From the IMG/VR virus record IMGVR_UViG_3300027977_000007: a stretch of 64,000 nucleotides of DNA. One strand, given 5' to 3'. How positions within the stretch are numbered: the first letter of the stretch is position 1; every line of letters starts with the position of its first letter. The position numbers and the translations under genes are program-made. The notes beneath the pieces are model-generated. The model did no database searches. It was not told the DNA's origin and saw nothing but the letters and a program-made list of their open reading frames with translations. Below are positions 22,622-64,000 of the stretch, one piece after another. The DNA is from a virus.

Positions 22622-22657
22622 AAATTAAAAGAGGGGAAATTTCCCCTCTTTTAATTT
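22622..22657. terminator. Bidirectional terminator between convergent neck and polymerase genes
   Basis: AAATTAAAAGAGGGGAA-AT-TTCCCCTCTTTTAATTT. Confidence 0.85.
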
Positions 22658-25600
22658 AAAATGGCCAACCATCGTCAATAACTTCTATTGTTGGTATTAC
22701 AATAGGTTCGTAGTCATCAGGTCTTTCAGCATATGTATCATCAAACTCATCTTCTAAGATAATTGATTCATCATTTTCAGCATCATTTTCAGCATCATCT
22801 TCAACATCATTTTCAGCATCATCCTCAGCATCATTTTCAGCATCATCCTCAGCAACCTTTTTTATTTTATTTGTGTTGATACCTTGATTAGCTTTTTCAC
22901 TTAGCAATTTAGCAACAACAGTTGCATCTACCAATGTTATCTCATCGGTATCTATGTTTATGGTTTCGCCAGACATAACCAATTGCTGATTAGTGTAATC
23001 AAGCCAAGCATCATACCTATCAACGCTTTCATTATTGGTTAGATTATAATAATGATTACGTCTTATAGCATCTTCTTCATATTTAAAGATATCATTTACA
23101 TGTGCTAAAACTTCACCCCATTTTCTAGAAACTAAATTACCTAAGCCATCGGTAGATATATCGGCAATGATAAAGATATCGATAGTTAATAAACCCTTAT
23201 TTGTAACATCGCTAAGTTCTTTAACTTCCAATCTTTTAAATAAATAATCTAATTTATTTTTTTCTTCTTCGATACTTTCAGCTCTAAACTTAGCCATTCT
23301 ATTATGATAATCGGACCTTATAGTGTCCCATTCATCTTGTGTCATATAGTTAGGCAACTTATCAACCTTATCCCAGAACTTAATCTCTTTATCTTCCATA
23401 CGCATAAGGTCAGCGTATGAATCTTGGTCACCAACATTAAACGGCATACCTGAAACCAATTCACATTCTTGCTTTGTGTAAACAGTACGCTCTTTTAATT
23501 TTTCAGTAACAATCTTTGTTTGTTTGTCTTTAGTTTTTATTATAGATAGAAGTATATTTTTTCTTACTTCTGGGTTAAAGCACACCAATAACGGCTTAAC
23601 CTTATTATTAAAGGTCTCTAGGTATTTAGGAACGTTATACTCATCAGTATGCAATTCGGTTTCAATTTCTGCAATCCTATTTTCGATAGCTACCTTATCA
23701 TCATCAGAATCCCCATCAATAGCAAGCAAGGCTTTTTTAAGAAGTTCAAGTTCTTTAATTATTTCGAAGTCATGTTCAACAACAGCTGGGTCAATTAATT
23801 TACAATTTAATTCAGTAACCTTATCCACTGGTGGATAAAAACCATTAGCTGCAAAAAATGCATCCCTTGCTTTCTTGGTCATTTTATTTTTATCAATTGT
23901 TTTCAAATCACCTTGACCTTTTGAATTACCAGTATTAATATAATATAAGGTATCACCTAGTGTTATATTAAGACCACCTAGGATTGCTAATTCCATATGT
24001 GCTTGTTTAGGCATAGGGTTACCAGCCTTATTCTTCATTGAAGCTTTCTTACGATAATCAGATAATGTAGTCTTAACCCTAGATTTATTGGCCATCTTAA
24101 CCAATGGTATTTGATAATTATATATCTTATCAACATATCCATAATAATAGTTAATAAATGACTGTCCATCACCATCTAATAACATACGTATAGCCTTAGC
24201 TAGAAAATCTTCGATAAACACAGGCATCTTCTTAGACTTAATGGAGTTACCGACTAGCTTAATTTTACCATTTATGTCATTTGCATAGTTCTTACGAGCA
24301 AAATTAATGGTTGAACGACAAATGTCGTCAATATCTAATCCCATACGACCTTCCATATAGTTTTCATTAAACTCAGCTAATACAGCATCCAATCCAATTA
24401 ATTCTTTGCCAGCATCCTTGGTTGTTTTCCAATGACTACCTCTAGCGACATATTTAATATCATCGATATTTGATGGGAAAGCAAAGTTAAAGCCATCAGT
24501 ATCACCAACCAAAGGTTTAAAGCCATGCTTTTCAGTAAAATGTCTAACCATAAGTCTTAAGGCTTGTCTACCACGACAAGTTGTTTCTTCAGCTGAATCA
24601 GTATCACCCCAATTAAAGATATATGGTGCACCATATGAACCAAACCATGAGTTGGCTAGGATTTTAAGTGGTAATTGCTTTTTATCGTATAGATTCGATA
24701 GACTTTTATACTCAGCAATCTTAGCTTCCACCTCAGAAATTTCTGAAGGGGTCATATTACTTCTATTTTTCTTTAATTCATCCGATAATTTATTGGCTTT
24801 TTTCTTTTCGCTACCAGTTAAATTTTTAAAGTGGTCCCTAGTATCAACAACATAAGTTAATATACCACGCATTACACCAGATATATCTAAGTCAGGGAAT
24901 ATTCCCCACGTTAATTGAATCTTAGGGTACAATGCAGCATAATCTAACTTAGCTACATCCTTAGCATAACCAATCTCTAATAGCCTTGATAAACCACCAG
25001 TAAATTCACGTTTTTGTTGTGTTTCTGGTATAGCTAACCCATTTTGGTACGACCAAGCAGACATTATTAATTTCCATTGACCAGCAGTACCCATTGTTGA
25101 TGAACGCATGAATGTTGTTGGTAATATCTTAGATATTAAGAATGAAGCTTGGTTAAATAGGTTATCAATTTGCTCTGTTTCCCATAAGTCATCGCATAGA
25201 TAACGTTGGACAATATAAGCACCAGTAGTTATAACATAGTTTGGCTTCAGATTAGCTTTTTCAGTTATCTTATACCAATCACCGTTGGTATTATTAAAGG
25301 CATACTGGTTAACCTTATCGGCCCAAATCAGACTAATCTTATCACCAGCAACATAAACACGGTTTGGCTTTGCTATTTCGGAATACTGAGTGATATATTT
25401 CAATCCCCAACTCTTAATCTCAGAGTTAATAGCCATGGCTCTTCTTACAGCGTGGGATATATCCAAGATATTATAACCATACATATGTGTTTGGTTATAA
25501 TGCTCTATTTCAGAACCCAACTTAAGCGTTGCTGATTTACGTTTAATCTTAGATATTCGATTAAGTGTAATTGCTAGCTCTGTTATATCCATACCAAGCC

Positions 25601-26363
25601 TTTCAGCACGGTCAAATAGATAAGGCCAGTCAAAGTTTTCTGAATTATAACCAGCTATTATATCTGGCTTTATCATATCGATAATTCTAAAGAATTTTGC
25701 GATATTTTCACGCTCACTATCTCGCTTATCCGATAATGTATTACCAATGCTCTCCAAGATATGTTCAATACCTCTATTATCCCTAACACCAATTTGTGTG
25801 ATAGCGTGTTTAGAAGCAAATAATCCTTCAGTTTCTAAGTCAAATTGAAAACGATGTAAGTCAGAGTAATCATCAATACCCTTAAATAATCTCTTACCAG
25901 ATTGTATTAAAAATTGCTCAGTTGGGCTAAACAATATAAACATCTTGTAGTTCTCTTTATCGAAGACATCAATACCGCCATCCTTAAAAAAGCTAATTAG
26001 TCTGTTATATGATTGGCTACACTTAGCAATGAATTTGTAACCATTTTCCATACGTGGCGGTACATACCCCTCATCATTATGGGTTCTTAATTTTTTAATT
26101 GTAACACCGTACTTATCACGAGCTTCAATTATTTTCATTCGATTCCCACCATACATAATCTTAGTTACATCTTCTTTAAACCAAATAAATGGTTCGTAAT
26201 GAGCAACTCGTTGGTATTTAGGTCTTGCTGGGTCATTGATGACCAAGGTAACATTATTCGTATGGTATTCGGATTCAACAGCTACGATATATTTTTCTGG
26301 GTCTGAACCCTGTAAAAATTGTTCAATTTGCTCGTTGGATAGGGTAGTTTTAGTTTGCGCCAT
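22656..26363 (-). CDS. DNA polymerase, family B
   Basis: Exonuclease motifs DLETEG, YNSENFDWPY and YLCDD. Polymerase motifs DYAALYP, KILANSWFG, GDTDG and RKNY. Confidence 0.95.
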   Translation of the reverse strand: MAQTKTTLSNEQIEQFLQGSDPEKYIVAVESEYHTNNVTLVINDPARPKYQRVAHYEPFIWFKEDVTKIMYGGNRMKIIEARDKYGVTIKKLRTHNDEGYVPPRMENGYKFIAKCSQSYNRLISFFKDGGIDVFDKENYKMFILFSPTEQFLIQSGKRLFKGIDDYSDLHRFQFDLETEGLFASKHAITQIGVRDNRGIEHILESIGNTLSDKRDSERENIAKFFRIIDMIKPDIIAGYNSENFDWPYLFDRAERLGMDITELAITLNRISKIKRKSATLKLGSEIEHYNQTHMYGYNILDISHAVRRAMAINSEIKSWGLKYITQYSEIAKPNRVYVAGDKISLIWADKVNQYAFNNTNGDWYKITEKANLKPNYVITTGAYIVQRYLCDDLWETEQIDNLFNQASFLISKILPTTFMRSSTMGTAGQWKLIMSAWSYQNGLAIPETQQKREFTGGLSRLLEIGYAKDVAKLDYAALYPKIQLTWGIFPDLDISGVMRGILTYVVDTRDHFKNLTGSEKKKANKLSDELKKNRSNMTPSEISEVEAKIAEYKSLSNLYDKKQLPLKILANSWFGSYGAPYIFNWGDTDSAEETTCRGRQALRLMVRHFTEKHGFKPLVGDTDGFNFAFPSNIDDIKYVARGSHWKTTKDAGKELIGLDAVLAEFNENYMEGRMGLDIDDICRSTINFARKNYANDINGKIKLVGNSIKSKKMPVFIEDFLAKAIRMLLDGDGQSFINYYYGYVDKIYNYQIPLVKMANKSRVKTTLSDYRKKASMKNKAGNPMPKQAHMELAILGGLNITLGDTLYYINTGNSKGQGDLKTIDKNKMTKKARDAFFAANGFYPPVDKVTELNCKLIDPAVVEHDFEIIKELELLKKALLAIDGDSDDDKVAIENRIAEIETELHTDEYNVPKYLETFNNKVKPLLVCFNPEVRKNILLSIIKTKDKQTKIVTEKLKERTVYTKQECELVSGMPFNVGDQDSYADLMRMEDKEIKFWDKVDKLPNYMTQDEWDTIRSDYHNRMAKFRAESIEEEKNKLDYLFKRLEVKELSDVTNKGLLTIDIFIIADISTDGLGNLVSRKWGEVLAHVNDIFKYEEDAIRRNHYYNLTNNESVDRYDAWLDYTNQQLVMSGETINIDTDEITLVDATVVAKLLSEKANQGINTNKIKKVAEDDAENDAEDDAENDVEDDAENDAENDESIILEDEFDDTYAERPDDYEPIVIPTIEVIDDGWPF
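22771..22854. repeat. 12-bp tandem repeat (7 units) encoding an acidic AE(D/N)D tract of the polymerase
   Basis: TCATTTTCAGCA / TCATCCTCAGCA units; protein AEDDAENDAEDDAENDVEDDAENDAEND. Confidence 0.85.
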
Positions 26364-57742: not shown

Positions 57743-59179
57743 ATGAGCATAGTTGAGAAAAAGAAAAAAGTATTTGGTAATATCGCTGCGATAAAAACGC
57801 TAACCCAAGGTATGCCAAAGCTTAATTTAAGCTCATCGTTTTCATCCATTAATAATAGTGGTGATGCCATTACATTCTTAACGGATTTAATCAAATCGTT
57901 GATTGGTTTTGAAGCCTTGGTAGAGGCTGTTGTTGATATTATAACCCATTCTTTACCAAAGGTTGAGCGTGAGGTTAAAAAAGCACTAAAGTTAGAACTT
58001 AAGACCATTGTTAGTTGTGGTGTTGACCCAAGCTTACCATCATGGGTCAAATCAACAGCTATGTCATCAACTACAAATAACCTAGTTATTGAATTAAAAA
58101 AGGTAGACTTTGCAAATATATTACGTACTGACCCAAATTCGGTAGCTGGTAAGTTGATATATAATGACATTACAACACCATTAACCGCTAGCACCGATTT
58201 TAATACATTCTTATACGGTGTCATTCAAGATGAGGGTCGTGTATATACTTGGAAAGATATCCTAAGCATACGATTTGATGCGGTTGGAACCATTAATAGA
58301 CCTAATAATTCCCTAACTATTAGTGCAGCACTACCATATGATACTAAGACTCTAACGGACCTTAACAATGACTTTATAGATAGCCTAGTATTATTTAATA
58401 GTGAAAATATTATAAATAAGATAATGGATATCATATACGGTTCAGTATCTAGCTTTATTGGTAAATCATTGAAACAACTTGAGAATGAAGTTAAGATAAA
58501 CGATATCGTTGATAAGATGGTTAATAACGTTAATGTTGGTTCTTTACCAGATTCAGCATTTTCATTTACCAAAGAGGAAACATATAAGCAACAAAATACA
58601 GCGGCAGACCTTAAAAAGGGTGTGACGGAACTAAAGAACTCAACAACAATCCCATCTAGTGTACCAATTGGTGACCTAACTAATTTTACACAAAATATTC
58701 TTGCGGTTCAAACAACGATAGAAAAGAAGGATGTCATTAAAACTGGCCTTAATAATATGGCTACGTCTAGTGTAGGTAATGTTTCAGATGAAACTGACAA
58801 GAATTCTGGTAAATTAAATTTTATTCAAAGAATAATAGAAACCCTAATCAAATCAGTTGTGAATATTGTTCTATCACCAAAGGTAATTATGGTATTTATA
58901 CTTAACTATAAGATAGTATATGGGCCAAGTGCAACGTTTACAGATGGTGTTGATTTTATCAAGAAAAATAAAAATTTAATGACCCGAATTATGAAGGTTA
59001 TTGGTGGGGAAATAATCAAGGTATTATTGGCAATTGCTCTAAAAGAAATTAGCGTATTAGTGGCTAAAGCAATGGCTAGAAAACAAAAAGAAAAAGCTGT
59101 ACTTAAATTGGCTCAATTACAGAGTCTTGTTGGTATACCAGCAGATACAATAAAAAACTTAATTGATAACTTATTATAA
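57743..59179 (+). CDS. Hypothetical structural protein
   Basis: 478-aa ORF in the late operon that contains the spike gene. Confidence 0.55.
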   Translation: MSIVEKKKKVFGNIAAIKTLTQGMPKLNLSSSFSSINNSGDAITFLTDLIKSLIGFEALVEAVVDIITHSLPKVEREVKKALKLELKTIVSCGVDPSLPSWVKSTAMSSTTNNLVIELKKVDFANILRTDPNSVAGKLIYNDITTPLTASTDFNTFLYGVIQDEGRVYTWKDILSIRFDAVGTINRPNNSLTISAALPYDTKTLTDLNNDFIDSLVLFNSENIINKIMDIIYGSVSSFIGKSLKQLENEVKINDIVDKMVNNVNVGSLPDSAFSFTKEETYKQQNTAADLKKGVTELKNSTTIPSSVPIGDLTNFTQNILAVQTTIEKKDVIKTGLNNMATSSVGNVSDETDKNSGKLNFIQRIIETLIKSVVNIVLSPKVIMVFILNYKIVYGPSATFTDGVDFIKKNKNLMTRIMKVIGGEIIKVLLAIALKEISVLVAKAMARKQKEKAVLKLAQLQSLVGIPADTIKNLIDNLL

Positions 59180-59610
59180 TGGCAGAAGAAAAACCAATAC
59201 CAAGTTCAGGATTTAACATTTCATCGGTTAACGGATTGCTAAATGTAATATTAAGTGCGTTTAAGATACCAGACACACCAGTAGAACCACTACCACCACC
59301 ATTAGTCATGGTAGGTGCTAAATTGAGAACTGGACTCTCACCACAGACAATAGCGGCCAATATAATTAGCAAGCAATCTAATTCTGGTAGAGTTGTTGGT
59401 GATGTGTTTGCAGATGGGCCAAATGTAGAAGAAGCTATGGAGTTAATCAGGGTACAAGAAATTATCAACGCAATACTTAACGATGCTAAGGTAGATGTAG
59501 TTATACCGCCTGGGATTGCTGTAACTACCGTTGGTGCTAGTCCATTAGGACCAGTAGTATCACAAGGCGTAACAATAACAATGGGTATCGGTGACGGTAT
59601 TATACGTTAA
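59179..59610 (+). CDS. Putative baseplate spike-associated protein
   Basis: C-terminal AKVDVVIPPGIAVTTVG...GIGDGII; lies near the spike gene. Confidence 0.4.
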   Translation: MAEEKPIPSSGFNISSVNGLLNVILSAFKIPDTPVEPLPPPLVMVGAKLRTGLSPQTIAANIISKQSNSGRVVGDVFADGPNVEEAMELIRVQEIINAILNDAKVDVVIPPGIAVTTVGASPLGPVVSQGVTITMGIGDGIIR

Positions 59611-59621
59611 ATTTATAAACA

Positions 59622-59804
59622 ATGAATGATTTAGAATCAAAATCAAATAATGACATTTTATTAGAAATAAAACAAATCGAGGCTGACCATGAGGCATTAA
59701 AGCTAACTATGTTGAAAGACTTAGATAGGCTTTTTGAATTGGAAGCTAGATTCGAACGTGCAAATCAAATAATATTAAATAGATTAAAAGGTACTAATGC
59801 TTAA
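59622..59804 (+). CDS. Small coiled-coil hypothetical protein
   Basis: 60-aa ORF in operon. Confidence 0.5.
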   Translation: MNDLESKSNNDILLEIKQIEADHEALKLTMLKDLDRLFELEARFERANQIILNRLKGTNA

Positions 59805-60798
59805 TAGTTCATCAAAATCATATAGAGAAAATGGTAACCTATACGCTAATACAAGTATAACACAAAATATAAAGTATGGTGTTGTAAAAGCATTAGAAAA
59901 TGAAGGTGGCCCATTGGTTAACAAAGGCTTAGGACGCATCAAGGTGTTCCTAAAGGGTTCTATCGTTACTGGTGGTGATGATGGTACCGCAGAAGCGGAT
60001 TTGCCATGGTGTTTTCCATTGTTACCCAAGCACCTATCGGTTCAACCTAAGATTGGTGAGGTTGTGCTTGTTATGGTATTTAACAATAATCGTCAACATG
60101 CTGATAGATTGTATATAGGTCCAATCATTTCACAACTACCATTATTAAATAAAGACCCGTATGAGTTCTCAGCACTGGCTGGATTTACCTTTGGTCCAGC
60201 TGAACCTAACGTAAACCCAAGTCAAATAACTGAGTTAAATGGTGTATTCCCAAATCCTTCAGATGTATCGATACAAGGCAGATACAATACCGATATTACA
60301 CAAAAGGATAACGAAATTATTATAAGAGCTGGTAAATTTGAAACAGTAACGCCAACGCCTAATAATCCTTATCAAATTAGATTTAATAGCGCAACTCAAG
60401 GATATATTCAAATAAAAAATGATGTTATAACCGTACAGAGTTCTGATAAAACACAACAAAAGAAAGGTACAATAACAAATATTGTATCAAATAAGATTAA
60501 CTTATTGACTCATGTTGATGGTAGTCCACGGTTTAATTTAACTAATCAAGATAATTTAATTAGTGATGAAGAACAAGACCTAATCAATCAAACGGCCCAT
60601 CAACTACCATTTGGTGATGTTCTATTAGAATATTTATTATTGTTAAAAGATGCTTTGTTTCTACACGTACATAATGGTAATGGTAATCCAGCAACGGATT
60701 TAACCGTATCAGGTAATAAACAAGCGCTAGCTGTATTCAAATCTAAAGCAAACCAATTAGAACAATCGATGCTATCAAAAAATATTAGAATAAACTAA
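59797..60798 (+). CDS. Baseplate central spike (gp5/gpV-like OB fold)
   Basis: LGRIKV...LPWCFPLLP...PKIGEVVLV; C-terminal HVH (HxH metal-binding tip motif). Confidence 0.75.
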   Translation: MLNSSSKSYRENGNLYANTSITQNIKYGVVKALENEGGPLVNKGLGRIKVFLKGSIVTGGDDGTAEADLPWCFPLLPKHLSVQPKIGEVVLVMVFNNNRQHADRLYIGPIISQLPLLNKDPYEFSALAGFTFGPAEPNVNPSQITELNGVFPNPSDVSIQGRYNTDITQKDNEIIIRAGKFETVTPTPNNPYQIRFNSATQGYIQIKNDVITVQSSDKTQQKKGTITNIVSNKINLLTHVDGSPRFNLTNQDNLISDEEQDLINQTAHQLPFGDVLLEYLLLLKDALFLHVHNGNGNPATDLTVSGNKQALAVFKSKANQLEQSMLSKNIRIN

Positions 60799-60828
60799 TT
60801 TTTTTGATATTTATATATAAAAGAAATT

Positions 60829-62235
60829 ATGGTTATTAGAACCTTTTTTGATAAGAATAATACTATCGTTAGTAATAGAAATGTTAATACTGGTCTAAAC
60901 CCAGTAACTGAATTATTTTATGGTGGTTCTATAGGTGAACAAACATATAGCCGATTTTTGTTTCATTTTGATGAAACAAGATTAAAAGCATTATATACTG
61001 GTGGCACTTATACTGACTTAACTAAGCTAAGACATACGCTTAGAATGACCAATACTGGTTCGTTTGATACTGAATTGCTTAATACATCAGTTGCTGGTAA
61101 ACGTAGAACATCATCATTTGACCTTATCTTATTTAAGATACAACAACCTTGGGATAATGGTGTTGGTTATGATTATGAAATACCATTATTAGTAAATGGT
61201 GAATCAGCATACTATAACGGCCCATCAAATTGGGTAGAAGCACAAACAGGTATTTCTTGGTCTGGTGGTACTGGCGTATATTCTGGTAGTCCTTCTGGCA
61301 TAACCGTAACAACCCAACACTTCGATAAGGGTAATGAAAATATTGAAATGGACGTTACCGACTATGTAAATGGCCTATTAACAGGTAATACCAATAATGG
61401 TCTAGGTATTGCTTTCGATAGAGGTTACGAAGAATTAAATACTATAACCCCACAATATGTTGGTTTCTTTACCAATAACACTCAAACGTTCTATGAACCA
61501 TTTATTGAAACAATATATGATAACTATATAACTGATGATAGAAATAATTTCTTTTTAGATAAGCCAAATAAACTTTACCTATATGTAAATATAGCTGGTA
61601 ACCCAACTAACCTAGATGCTAAACCAAGCGTAAATATCTATAATTATAATAATGTATTGGTTAGCGCTTTTACCTCTTCAAATGTAAATCATGTAACGCT
61701 TGGTGTATATTCTATAGATTTAACCATACCAACTAATTCAAGCAACGTAGAGACGATGTATTCAGACGTGTGGACTGGTATTACCATTAATGGTGTGAAC
61801 AGGGCTAATATTAGCTTAAACTTCGTTGTAAAGGATTCTATGGGTTATTATAGTATAGGTGATAACTTCATGCTGCCACAAAAGGTAGCCGTTAACATTT
61901 CTGGTATACAAAATAAAGAACGCATTAAGCGTGGTGATGTACGTAAGGTTATCGTATCAGCTAGAATACCCTATACCGTAGAACAAACACAAAATATTTC
62001 AGGTCTTAAGTATCGCTTATATGTTACCGAAGGTACCAGTCAATTAACCGTAATTGATTGGGAATCAATTGAAATGGCAAATAATTATTATTATTTCTTA
62101 TTGGATACTGAAAGTCTAATCCCTAATACTTATTATATTGATGTTCAATCAACAACTGGACAAGAAGTTACAACACTTAAAAATGTACTTCAATTTGATA
62201 TCATTAGTCAAGTAGAATTAAGAGGACGTTTATAA
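60829..62235 (+). CDS. Virion structural protein (beta-rich)
   Basis: Late motif at 60807-60814; SRFLFHFD, WDNGVGYD, MDVTDYV and FYEPFIE pattern. Confidence 0.55.
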   Translation: MVIRTFFDKNNTIVSNRNVNTGLNPVTELFYGGSIGEQTYSRFLFHFDETRLKALYTGGTYTDLTKLRHTLRMTNTGSFDTELLNTSVAGKRRTSSFDLILFKIQQPWDNGVGYDYEIPLLVNGESAYYNGPSNWVEAQTGISWSGGTGVYSGSPSGITVTTQHFDKGNENIEMDVTDYVNGLLTGNTNNGLGIAFDRGYEELNTITPQYVGFFTNNTQTFYEPFIETIYDNYITDDRNNFFLDKPNKLYLYVNIAGNPTNLDAKPSVNIYNYNNVLVSAFTSSNVNHVTLGVYSIDLTIPTNSSNVETMYSDVWTGITINGVNRANISLNFVVKDSMGYYSIGDNFMLPQKVAVNISGIQNKERIKRGDVRKVIVSARIPYTVEQTQNISGLKYRLYVTEGTSQLTVIDWESIEMANNYYYFLLDTESLIPNTYYIDVQSTTGQEVTTLKNVLQFDIISQVELRGRL

Positions 62236-62236
62236 T

Positions 62237-62542
62237 ATGAAAGAGCAAATAAAAAACCTATTAAGAGAAGGATTACTTCAAAATAAAGGATTAGAAACAG
62301 CTTGCAATACAATGAGCGTGGCATCATATAAAGAAGGTATTGCTTTAATTATTAGTGCTATTGGTACACCAGAGCAAAATCCATCAATGTGGAAGCGTAT
62401 CGAGCGACCAATTAAAAACTGGCGAGATGCGGATAAATTAATTAGTCATGAAATTAAAACCAAGCGTATGTCTGGTGATTCAATGGTTGATGAGTCTAAT
62501 ACTTGGTGGTCTGCTGTTCAATCAACTATTTGTCCTAAATAA
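62237..62542 (+). CDS. Hypothetical protein with MKxxIKxLLRE leader
   Basis: Coupled ORF. Confidence 0.55.
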   Translation: MKEQIKNLLREGLLQNKGLETACNTMSVASYKEGIALIISAIGTPEQNPSMWKRIERPIKNWRDADKLISHEIKTKRMSGDSMVDESNTWWSAVQSTICPK

Positions 62543-62556
62543 TTTTTTTGATTTAC

Positions 62557-62588
62557 TTGACAATTATTAATTTTATTAGTATATTTAT
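62557..62588 (+). promoter_or_regulatory. Composite promoter (host-type -33/-7 spacing overlapping the late motif)
   Basis: TTG(62557-59)-N20-TATATTTA(62580-87), overlapping ATATTTAT at 62581-62588. Confidence 0.6.
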
Positions 62589-62591
62589 CAT

Positions 62592-62692
62592 TACATTAGC
62601 TCAAGTATCAGTCCCGACCAATAAAATGGTTTAGAGTTGTTAACGCAACAAAGGTATTGGTACAATAACAATAAATTAAAAAGTTAATAAAC
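62592..62692 (+). ncRNA. Candidate structured 5' leader RNA
   Basis: 100-nt leader with several hand-identified stems and 15-nt complementarity to the 3' UTR. Confidence 0.5.
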
Positions 62693-63523
62693 ATGACACA
62701 AAAAATGATGGCACCTAATGTGCCAACGGCAAATATTGCTGTAAACAAATCTCGTATTAAATTATACGACAAGAATGTAGAAGTACCAACTTACTACTTG
62801 AAAAAAGGCCAAGAATTTCAAATTGAATTGGCAAACATGACTACCGATGTAGTCTTAGCAAAAATAATACTTAATGGTAAATCTTTATCTCAAGGTGGTC
62901 TGGTATTAAACCCAGGTCAGAGAGTCTTCTTGGACAGATACTTAGACGTAGCCAAAAAGTTCTTATTTGATACGTATGATGTGTCAAATACACAAGAAGT
63001 TAAAGATGCTATTAGAGATAATGGTGATATTAAGGTAGAATTCTATCGAGAAAATATCAACACCTATCAATCACCAATCGTTATTAGACCACTTGATTAC
63101 ACTTATCATCCTGATATTATAAGATATAATACTTATACATCAAATACTTATTGTGCCTCACAACCAGTGTTTGGTCGACCAAACACTAATGATAACACCA
63201 CACTAACAAGTACCTTAGGGGGTTATTCGTCTGGTCAGATTTTAACTTCGGCTTTATCAGCTAATAACTCACCACTTAGAGGGGTGTCAAAATCACTTGA
63301 AACTGGACGAGTTGAAAAGGGTTCTGACTCCAATCAAGAATTAACATCGGTTAATAAATCATTCTATTATCTACCATTCCATACGGTAACGTATAAACTA
63401 TTACCAATATCGCAAAAGATTAATACCCTTGAGGATATTAATGTAAAAAGATATTGCACATCTTGCGGTGCTAAGGTCGGTAAAACTGATAGGTTTTGCA
63501 GTCAGTGTGGGGCCAAAGCGTAA
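62693..63523 (+). CDS. Hypothetical protein with C-terminal zinc ribbon
   Basis: Beta-rich N-terminal domain, low-complexity linker, then CTSCG...FCSQCG. Confidence 0.7.
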   Translation: MTQKMMAPNVPTANIAVNKSRIKLYDKNVEVPTYYLKKGQEFQIELANMTTDVVLAKIILNGKSLSQGGLVLNPGQRVFLDRYLDVAKKFLFDTYDVSNTQEVKDAIRDNGDIKVEFYRENINTYQSPIVIRPLDYTYHPDIIRYNTYTSNTYCASQPVFGRPNTNDNTTLTSTLGGYSSGQILTSALSANNSPLRGVSKSLETGRVEKGSDSNQELTSVNKSFYYLPFHTVTYKLLPISQKINTLEDINVKRYCTSCGAKVGKTDRFCSQCGAKA

Positions 63524-63547
63524 ATAAAATAACTTGAGTTAATGTAT

Positions 63548-63576
63548 AAAAAAAAGGAGCATAATGCTCCTTTTTT
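63548..63576. terminator. Bidirectional terminator
   Basis: AAAAAAGGAGC-ATAAT-GCTCCTTTTTT between convergent genes. Confidence 0.85.
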
Positions 63577-64000
63577 ATTTGCTTATAATTTGTTGTATGT
63601 CATCAAAACTAACTGAATCATTTATATACCAGAATCTATCAGCATCTCTAAAAGTATCTTCACCATCAAAACCATTTCCTAAGATATAATTAGATGACCT
63701 AAATAAATACAAATCTTGACTATTATTATCCTTATGGTGCCATGCTATGTCAGTAATCTCATCTAGGGCTTTATTAAATGTTTCTTCATTATTAAAACCG
63801 TAACCACTTAAACCCCACTCTGGGTCAGAATTCCACATTCCACTAACAGGGTCTTCTTTTGGTTCACTTTCTAAATACACACCTTTAGATTTTCTTTCTT
63901 CATAATCAGCCATTGCTTCCTCATAGGTATCGTACCAAGCTTGCATATGTCCACTAAAATTACGTTCTATATCATTTTCTGGTGAATCAGTCCAACGTAA
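63575..64000 (-). CDS. Hypothetical protein, 5' end beyond window
   Basis: Frame stays open upstream of 63946 to the window end (LRWTDSPENDIERNFSGHMQAW...). Confidence 0.55.
   Translation of the reverse strand, partial: LRWTDSPENDIERNFSGHMQAWYDTYEEAMADYEERKSKGVYLESEPKEDPVSGMWNSDPEWGLSGYGFNNEETFNKALDEITDIAWHHKDNNSQDLYLFRSSNYILGNGFDGEDTFRDADRFWYINDSVSFDDIQQIISK

Follow-up and report, generated by a model that had tools for sequence, protein, structure and literature searches.

The ompA mRNA is an example of a bacterial message stabilized by a 5′-terminal stem-loop, and in Staphylococcus aureus the 3′ UTR of icaR pairs with the Shine-Dalgarno (SD) sequence, which blocks translation and invites RNase III. 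The pairing of the icaR 3′ UTR with its own 5′ UTR is named in the study of the Bacillus subtilis hbs mRNA by Braun, Durand and Condon (2017; PMC5737220), in which a 14-nt duplex linking the 5′ UTR with the 3′ UTR, located just upstream of the terminator, limits cleavage by RNases. Pairing over long distances is also a feature of type I toxin-antitoxin mRNAs, among them hok of plasmid R1, with its tac/fbi fold-back, and aapA of Helicobacter pylori, and metastable 5′ structures have been proposed for the nascent RNA in these systems (PMC9841398).

Here we analyze a 64,000-nucleotide stretch of viral DNA (hereafter the window) from IMG/VR record IMGVR_UViG_3300027977_000007, whose source genome is a 142-kb fragment that is ~42% complete. 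Near one end of the window, the message of a zinc-ribbon gene is predicted to be closed by a helix, P0, which joins its first transcribed nucleotides to the sequence directly before its terminator and abuts a three-way-junction leader (Table 1). Judged by sequence comparison, this monocistronic phage mRNA has a conserved RNA architecture that acts in cis, and we regard it as almost certain that the RNA structure around the gene is real and under selection.

The likeness to hbs lies in a duplex of ~14 nt, mostly A/U, that joins the 5′ UTR to sequence just upstream of an intrinsic terminator, and in a short monocistronic mRNA with a highly structured leader; in hbs, this duplex modulates RNase access (PMC5737220). 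The 5′ partner in hbs is located within the leader, however, after hairpin hp2 and over an RNase Y site, whereas here it is the extreme 5′ end. Moreover, hbs depends on a very strong SD while the phage message has none, and the hbs duplex has neither demonstrated covariation across hundreds of lineages nor an abutting three-way junction. As a long-range pairing of mRNA ends, P0 works like the pairing in hok and is comparable to that in aapA, and the first-pass annotation of this locus had drawn the analogy to these toxin mRNAs. The analogy fails on two points: the SD is sequestered in the closed form of hok, whereas the start region here is predicted to be 65% unpaired with P0 formed, and hok encodes a small membrane toxin of about 50 aa, whereas the gene here encodes a 276-aa protein conserved in a phage clade. 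The toxin systems may also differ in their antisense RNA, as no conserved one was found here among minus-strand terminator-like hairpins at 80 loci, and the phage message gives no sign of activation by 3′ trimming. The contrast to icaR is one of partner, since the 3′ UTR here pairs with the 5′ terminus and not with the ribosome-binding site. Stabilizers of the ompA type also have a paired 5′ terminus with almost no overhang, and phage clades lacking P0 use a local 5′-terminal helix, P1; in P0, however, the partner strand is ~950 nt away and stacked on the terminator, so that both ends are tied together. The phage element resembles the long-range pairings of hbs and hok and is a member of neither system.

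Transcription unit and end-to-end helix in the window

The sequence between 62557 and 62585 forms a sigma-70-like promoter with 11 of 12 matches, the top score within 59000-64000, and the promoter box is kept in homologous loci. From this promoter and from the −7-type box alike, the transcript is predicted to start at ~62592. The zinc-ribbon gene is the last of a 32-kb co-directional block and constitutes a single-gene unit that faces a convergent gene ending at 63575; the two genes have the terminator in common, and its stem differs by compensatory substitutions in close relatives. These features bear out the self-contained single-gene unit proposed in the first-pass annotation, in which the 5′ arm of the pairing begins where transcription is expected to start and the 3′ arm extends to just before the terminator.

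Table 1 Features of the zinc-ribbon gene transcription unit (positions are those of the window).
Feature	Position	Strand	Description
Promoter	62557-62587	+	−35 hexamer 62557-62562, 17-nt spacer, −10 hexamer 62580-62585, then −7-type box to 62587
P0 5′ strand	62592-62606	+	First 15 nt of the predicted transcript
Three-way-junction leader	62605-62663	+	Single-sequence fold and consensus fold of 67 leaders
P1	62605-62612 with 62656-62663, plus 62614-62615 with 62653-62654	+	
P2	62616-62620 with 62627-62631	+	
P3	62636-62640 with 62645-62649	+	
Unstructured A-rich initiation region	62664-62708	+	Start codon 62693; no Shine-Dalgarno sequence
CDS, 276 aa	62693-63523	+	Conserved N-terminal beta-sandwich, variable linker, conserved C-terminal segment, C4 zinc ribbon
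Two adjacent hairpins	62709-62725, 62726-62742	+	Within codons 6-17; −15.2 kcal/mol, z −3.9
P0 3′ strand	63532-63546	+	Begins 8 nt past the stop codon; ends 3 nt before the terminator stem
Terminator	63550-63576	both	Intrinsic, bidirectional, 12 pairs; A run pairs with U tail

Many genes of the window have a −7-type box just 10-25 nt before the ATG, and compared with these short distances the 100-nt leader of the zinc-ribbon gene is exceptional. Two further observations concern the surroundings of this unit. In the promoters of seven loci other than the window (L077, L079, L094, L103, L107, L047 and L062), the spacer between the −35 and −10 hexamers often contains an inverted repeat of 6-7 nt that starts within the −35 hexamer. 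From locus to locus the sequence of this repeat covaries, suggestive of an operator at which a DNA-binding regulator acts. Close relatives also encode a 149-aa ART-PolyVal (ADP-ribosyltransferase-like) protein between genes for 468-aa and 101-aa products (L063:829-1278, L066:2095-2544), and this gene is missing from the window at the corresponding site, 62235-62237.

An inverted-repeat search of the window recovered the two arms of P0 as 15-nt sequences that are 93% complementary and 925 nt apart, in agreement with the 15-bp complementarity noted in the first-pass annotation. On plus-strand RNA the arms form 14 Watson-Crick pairs and one G·U pair (G62599 opposite T63539), and neither arm recurs in the window at fewer than three mismatches. 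P0 is present in both the minimum-free-energy (MFE) and the centroid fold of the window's 991-nt transcript (62592-63582). This transcript is predicted to be 60 kcal/mol more stable than shuffles, with a z-score of about −6 to −7 (−6.9 and −6.0); seven other 1-kb segments of the window have z-scores of −0.4 to −2.5, and the coding region alone has z-scores of −1.2 to −4.3 in eight relatives. The score of the window's P0 was reached by 0.2% of shuffled-flank trials, and in a scan that combined ~750 promoter-like with 110 terminator-like sites of the 142-kb genome P0 ranked first, with five other pairs scoring at least 24. The second-best pair (22654-24133, minus strand, 14 nt) was rejected as a chance match, its putative promoter being located within an open reading frame (22656-26363). 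Taken from one genome alone, P0 is borderline against chance, and the evidence at this level is suggestive; we consider P0 solid because of the comparative evidence from homologous loci.

Conservation of the helix across homologous loci

At least 1298 relatives of the zinc-ribbon protein are found in public metagenomes and 328 in IMG/VR, many of them on contigs of 100-377 kb. The named relatives (Lak megaphages of Prevotella, huge phages of 460-735 kb) are 29-37% identical, and a DNA search of named phages returned short patches only. Neighboring genes in close relatives include one for a Gp23-type capsid protein. Few genes of the window have an SD-like motif (3 of 50), and the upstream regions are A-rich (52% A, 15% G+C), from which we infer that the host is probably Bacteroidota-type. 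Three further matches (L158, L159 and L160), one of them on a 103-kb contig, come from prokaryote metagenome bins labeled Methanobacterium, Polynucleobacter and a third bin; these look like phage contigs binned with unrelated organisms, and the labels are implausible and carry no host information.

Within the protein, the N-terminal 125 residues are predicted to form a conserved beta-sandwich (pLDDT about 80), residues 126-217 a disordered and variable linker rich in Ser/Thr/Asn, and residues 254-275 match Zn_Ribbon_1 (PF13240) at 29.9 bits against a gathering cut-off of 25, with all four cysteines invariant in 22 sequences. Searches for function gave no PHROGs match, no PDB fold match and no PDB sequence-profile match, while Atlas returned only unnamed phage clusters and BFVD only uncharacterized viral proteins. 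The description of the product as an uncharacterized zinc-ribbon protein stands, as its function could not be read from any family, fold or solved relative.

We compared 80 distinct homologous flank pairs using a helix threshold score of at least 24. In 63 of the 80 loci (unweighted by phylogeny), versus 6% of shuffles, a P0-like helix of 10-15 bp reaches this threshold, and its arms have constant positions, ~100 nt upstream of the start codon and 4-16 nt past the stop codon. Of the 53 loci with a callable promoter, 35 place the beginning of the helix 5-7 nt past the −10 hexamer, and the spacing at the other end is likewise conserved, with 0-5 nt between the end of the 3′ arm and the terminator fold. 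When full-length transcripts of ~1 kb each were folded, P0 was part of the minimum-energy structure in 59 of 63, and its mean duplex energy was −14.4 kcal/mol.

This geometry is maintained across arms that differ in sequence. There are 48 distinct arm pairs, many of which have a common six-base palindromic core while several are unrelated in sequence; a repeat search confirmed this lack of sequence relationship for ten diverse loci, one of them from a 462-kb huge phage. Separate MAFFT alignments of the flanks combined with an all-against-all column scan were dropped, as they were swamped by A/T-rich chance pairing; long-range covariation was instead evaluated with custom scripts in which each locus was treated in its own register with slide controls, together with permutation of the partners. 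Twelve helix columns were 92.3% paired in register, compared with 29-37% when the arms were slid by 1-3 nt, and compensatory changes on both sides were identified in nine of the twelve (e.g., 26 A-U versus 17 G-C). The central four bases of P0 show no variation across the arm pairs. Permuting the 3′ partners gave a complementarity of 1548 ± 34 against the observed 2104, which was reached in none of 10,000 permutations; together with the slide controls, this rules out a chance match. The RNA-level selection on a 5′-3′ panhandle that had been proposed from the window's sequence was in this way tested by covariation in homologous flanks and found.

In close relatives whose proteins are 87-97% identical, the leader (101 nt) retains 97-100% identity and the sequence from stop codon to terminator matches at 25-26 of its 26 nt, yet identity at four-fold degenerate sites is only 74-90%. 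In two of these close relatives the G·U pair has shifted to the neighboring position with the 3′ arm unchanged, and the adjoining leader has invariant G·U pairs on the plus strand; both observations support the earlier argument that the wobble in the window reflects pairing of RNA.

A DNA-level explanation must nevertheless be weighed, as inverted repeats flanking a gene also covary if a single protein recognizes both. In this scenario the arms would be the ends of a mobile or invertible cassette, or paired protein sites, with no role in RNA. Under mismatch-blind scoring, the helices contain G(5′)·U(3′) 14 times compared with 5-6 mismatches of the A/C type; the latter do exist, and the excess of wobbles leans toward plus-strand RNA while not being decisive alone. 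The arms, however, are always within the transcription unit, at its start and just before its terminator, and the gene has retained its neighborhood in each of three close relatives. A single non-enzymatic open reading frame lies between the arms, and it encodes no recombinase or transposase. Two further points concern the sequences beside the arms: the adjoining three-way junction is unambiguously plus-strand RNA, given its invariant G·U pairs, and clades lacking P0 carry a longer 5′-terminal P1 instead. We therefore leave only a very slight residual chance to DNA repeats and continue with P0 as an RNA helix.

Of the 17 loci below the threshold, three have a helix of 10 bp that narrowly misses the cut-off, and two retain a relic 3′ arm. 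In five others (L092, L099, L111, L112 and L130), inserted DNA of 870-1200 nt separates the stop codon from the 3′ arm, and the arm together with its original terminator now lies that much further downstream; the L092 insertion (L092:2344-3213) includes an opposite-strand gene for a 260-aa homing endonuclease of the LAGLIDADG type, and this gene has a hairpin of its own. These insertions indicate that the pairing is not indispensable in the short term. In the clades without P0 (LR756504, Lak), P1 as read by eye is longer, 9-10 bp, and begins at the 5′ end, which points to pairing of the 5′ end as the constant feature.

The leader junction and the start region

Consensus folding of 67 aligned non-redundant leaders with RNAalifold produced a three-way junction, the P1 helix of which abuts P0. 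In this consensus 96.3% of cells are paired, compared with 36-47% when slid, compensatory changes are present in 15 of 18 pairs, and none of 500 shuffles reached the observed value for any of five measures. The invariant G·U pairs of the leader function on the plus strand alone. The window's leader folds by itself into the same junction (z −3.3). An alternative fold (62617-62623 with 62655-62661) was rejected, as 55.2% of its cells were paired versus 54.2% in shuffles and no covariation was detected. A covariance model built from the leader finds a single copy in the 142-kb genome (E 2e-16), on this gene, and also matches the leaders of LR756504 (1.5e-9), LR756500 (7.8e-8) and, weakly, LR756508 (0.023). 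A search of Rfam 15 in permissive E-value mode returned nothing on the plus strand of 62592-62692 and sub-threshold matches on the terminator only, and we found no paper describing this end-paired phage mRNA element in the literature searched. Its earlier characterization as undescribed agrees with both results.

The strands at the junction are nearly invariant while the stems covary, and the same is true of the central four bases of P0 within its helix. Invariance of the helix core, together with conservation at the junction, suggests that a factor recognizes these nucleotides; simple end protection would not call for one. One candidate is the encoded protein: the junction stacked on P0 could serve as an operator, possibly for the zinc-ribbon protein itself, with autoregulation or assembly of an RNA-protein particle as the purpose. 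The junction occurs once in the 142-kb genome, always on this gene and also in very distant relatives, and the C-terminus of the protein is a C4 zinc ribbon, a common nucleic-acid-binding module. The protein has no recognizable RNA-binding fold, however, and P2 and P3 lack conserved loop sequences, and we consider a protein-binding platform of this kind unlikely as the main role.

Downstream of the junction, the initiation region is predicted to be open. Windows from −30 to +23 around the start codon have a mean MFE of ~−0.3 kcal/mol and z-scores of at least 0 across the 80 loci. From approximately +17 onward this is followed by the early coding hairpins, which most loci possess, with mean z-scores of −2.3 to −2.9 for windows within +6 to +53 in the 80 loci; 82% of these loci have an MFE of −6 kcal/mol or lower at +18 to +53, and beyond +90 z is ~0. 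The stem sequences of these hairpins differ between loci and are located in a poorly conserved part of the protein. Because they come after the A-rich start region, the plus-strand hairpins look like minus-strand terminators in 31 of the 80 loci.

The start region includes a conserved box of 7 nt (62683-62689) similar to the core of the 3′ arm, and weak pairing of this box with the 5′ arm is possible. One may postulate a scenario in which this box takes part in a translation switch that senses completeness, in effect the logic of hok in reverse, such that only full-length messages are translated. While the 3′ arm has not yet been made, or after it has been lost by 3′ decay, the start-proximal box or the 5′ strand of P1 would be the partner of the 5′ arm; once the 3′ arm took over the 5′ arm, the start region would become free and the junction complete. 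The box resembles the 3′ arm in several arm classes, and over 16 arm classes the cognate duplexes between 5′ arm and start region outperform permuted ones (21 of 20,000 permutations), although these classes are not phylogenetically independent. In the window, the MFE structure of the leader alone pairs 62595-62601 with the box, a pairing that is absent from the centroid, and the distance of 4-16 nt between stop codon and 3′ arm means that a terminating ribosome would touch P0. These duplexes are weak, however, with a mean of −4.6 kcal/mol compared with −2.7 for shuffles, and modeled accessibility of the start region hardly moves when the 3′ UTR is added (0.60 to 0.65; 31 loci more open, 10 less). 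In 78% of cells a local 5′ hairpin that would compete with P0 and P1 could form, with covariation no different from that in shuffles. Such a switch is conceivable but rather improbable on this balance.

End protection and what the pairing may mean

From the observed structures, covariation and geometry, we infer stabilization of the full-length message as the main role of the pairing, a reading in which our confidence is about even. The first 10-15 transcribed nucleotides would pair with the 3′ UTR directly before the terminator, and P0 would abut the terminator hairpin, with its A run paired to the 3′ U tail, on one side and P1 of the leader on the other. As P0 sits between terminator and P1, both RNA ends would be buried in a single, nearly continuous helical stack, leaving the A-rich initiation region, which has no SD, open between the junction and the two early coding hairpins. 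The stack would shield the complete transcript from RNases that require a free 5′ or 3′ end, and a gene with a host-type promoter, which the phage may later shut off, would in this way have a long-lived message.

The same stack could be read in the opposite direction, as a stem that RNase III cuts on both strands, thereby trimming or inactivating the message. Classic substrates of this enzyme have just such a layout, a whole transcript closed by a long-range helix, as in the stems flanking rRNA precursors, and stacking on the terminator and P1 could provide more than 20 contiguous pairs. P0 alone is only 10-15 bp, however, which is shorter than typical substrates (~20 bp or more, continuous), and cutting would take away both protective ends; a processing stem is in our view very improbable. 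No gene for RNase III (PF14622) or for RNA ligases (PF09414, PF09511) was found in the 142-kb fragment, which is uninformative given that the fragment represents ~42% of the genome.

A further variant begins from the same geometry as end protection. The 5′ end with its triphosphate would meet the paired 3′ U tail at a nick in a continuous helix, producing a closed-loop mRNA in which this handle licenses only complete transcripts. This would bring the stop codon, ~10 nt away from P0, alongside the start region, ~30 nt past the junction, an arrangement that could return terminating ribosomes to the start or act as a substrate for end-joining into circular RNA. We regard licensing through a closed loop as quite unlikely.

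In a large clade of large, uncultured phages that includes relatives of the Lak megaphages of the gut, dozens of compensatory changes accompany the conserved pairing of mRNA ends, whereas none of the earlier examples of end pairing rests on broad phylogenetic covariation. The pairing here is joined to a new three-way-junction RNA family. It provides a natural, evolution-validated model for tying both ends of an mRNA together, for message stabilization or licensing in hosts that initiate translation without Shine-Dalgarno pairing, and for continued expression of a phage gene with an early promoter. In addition, it singles out an uncharacterized, strongly conserved protein for which the phage takes unusual care over dosage.
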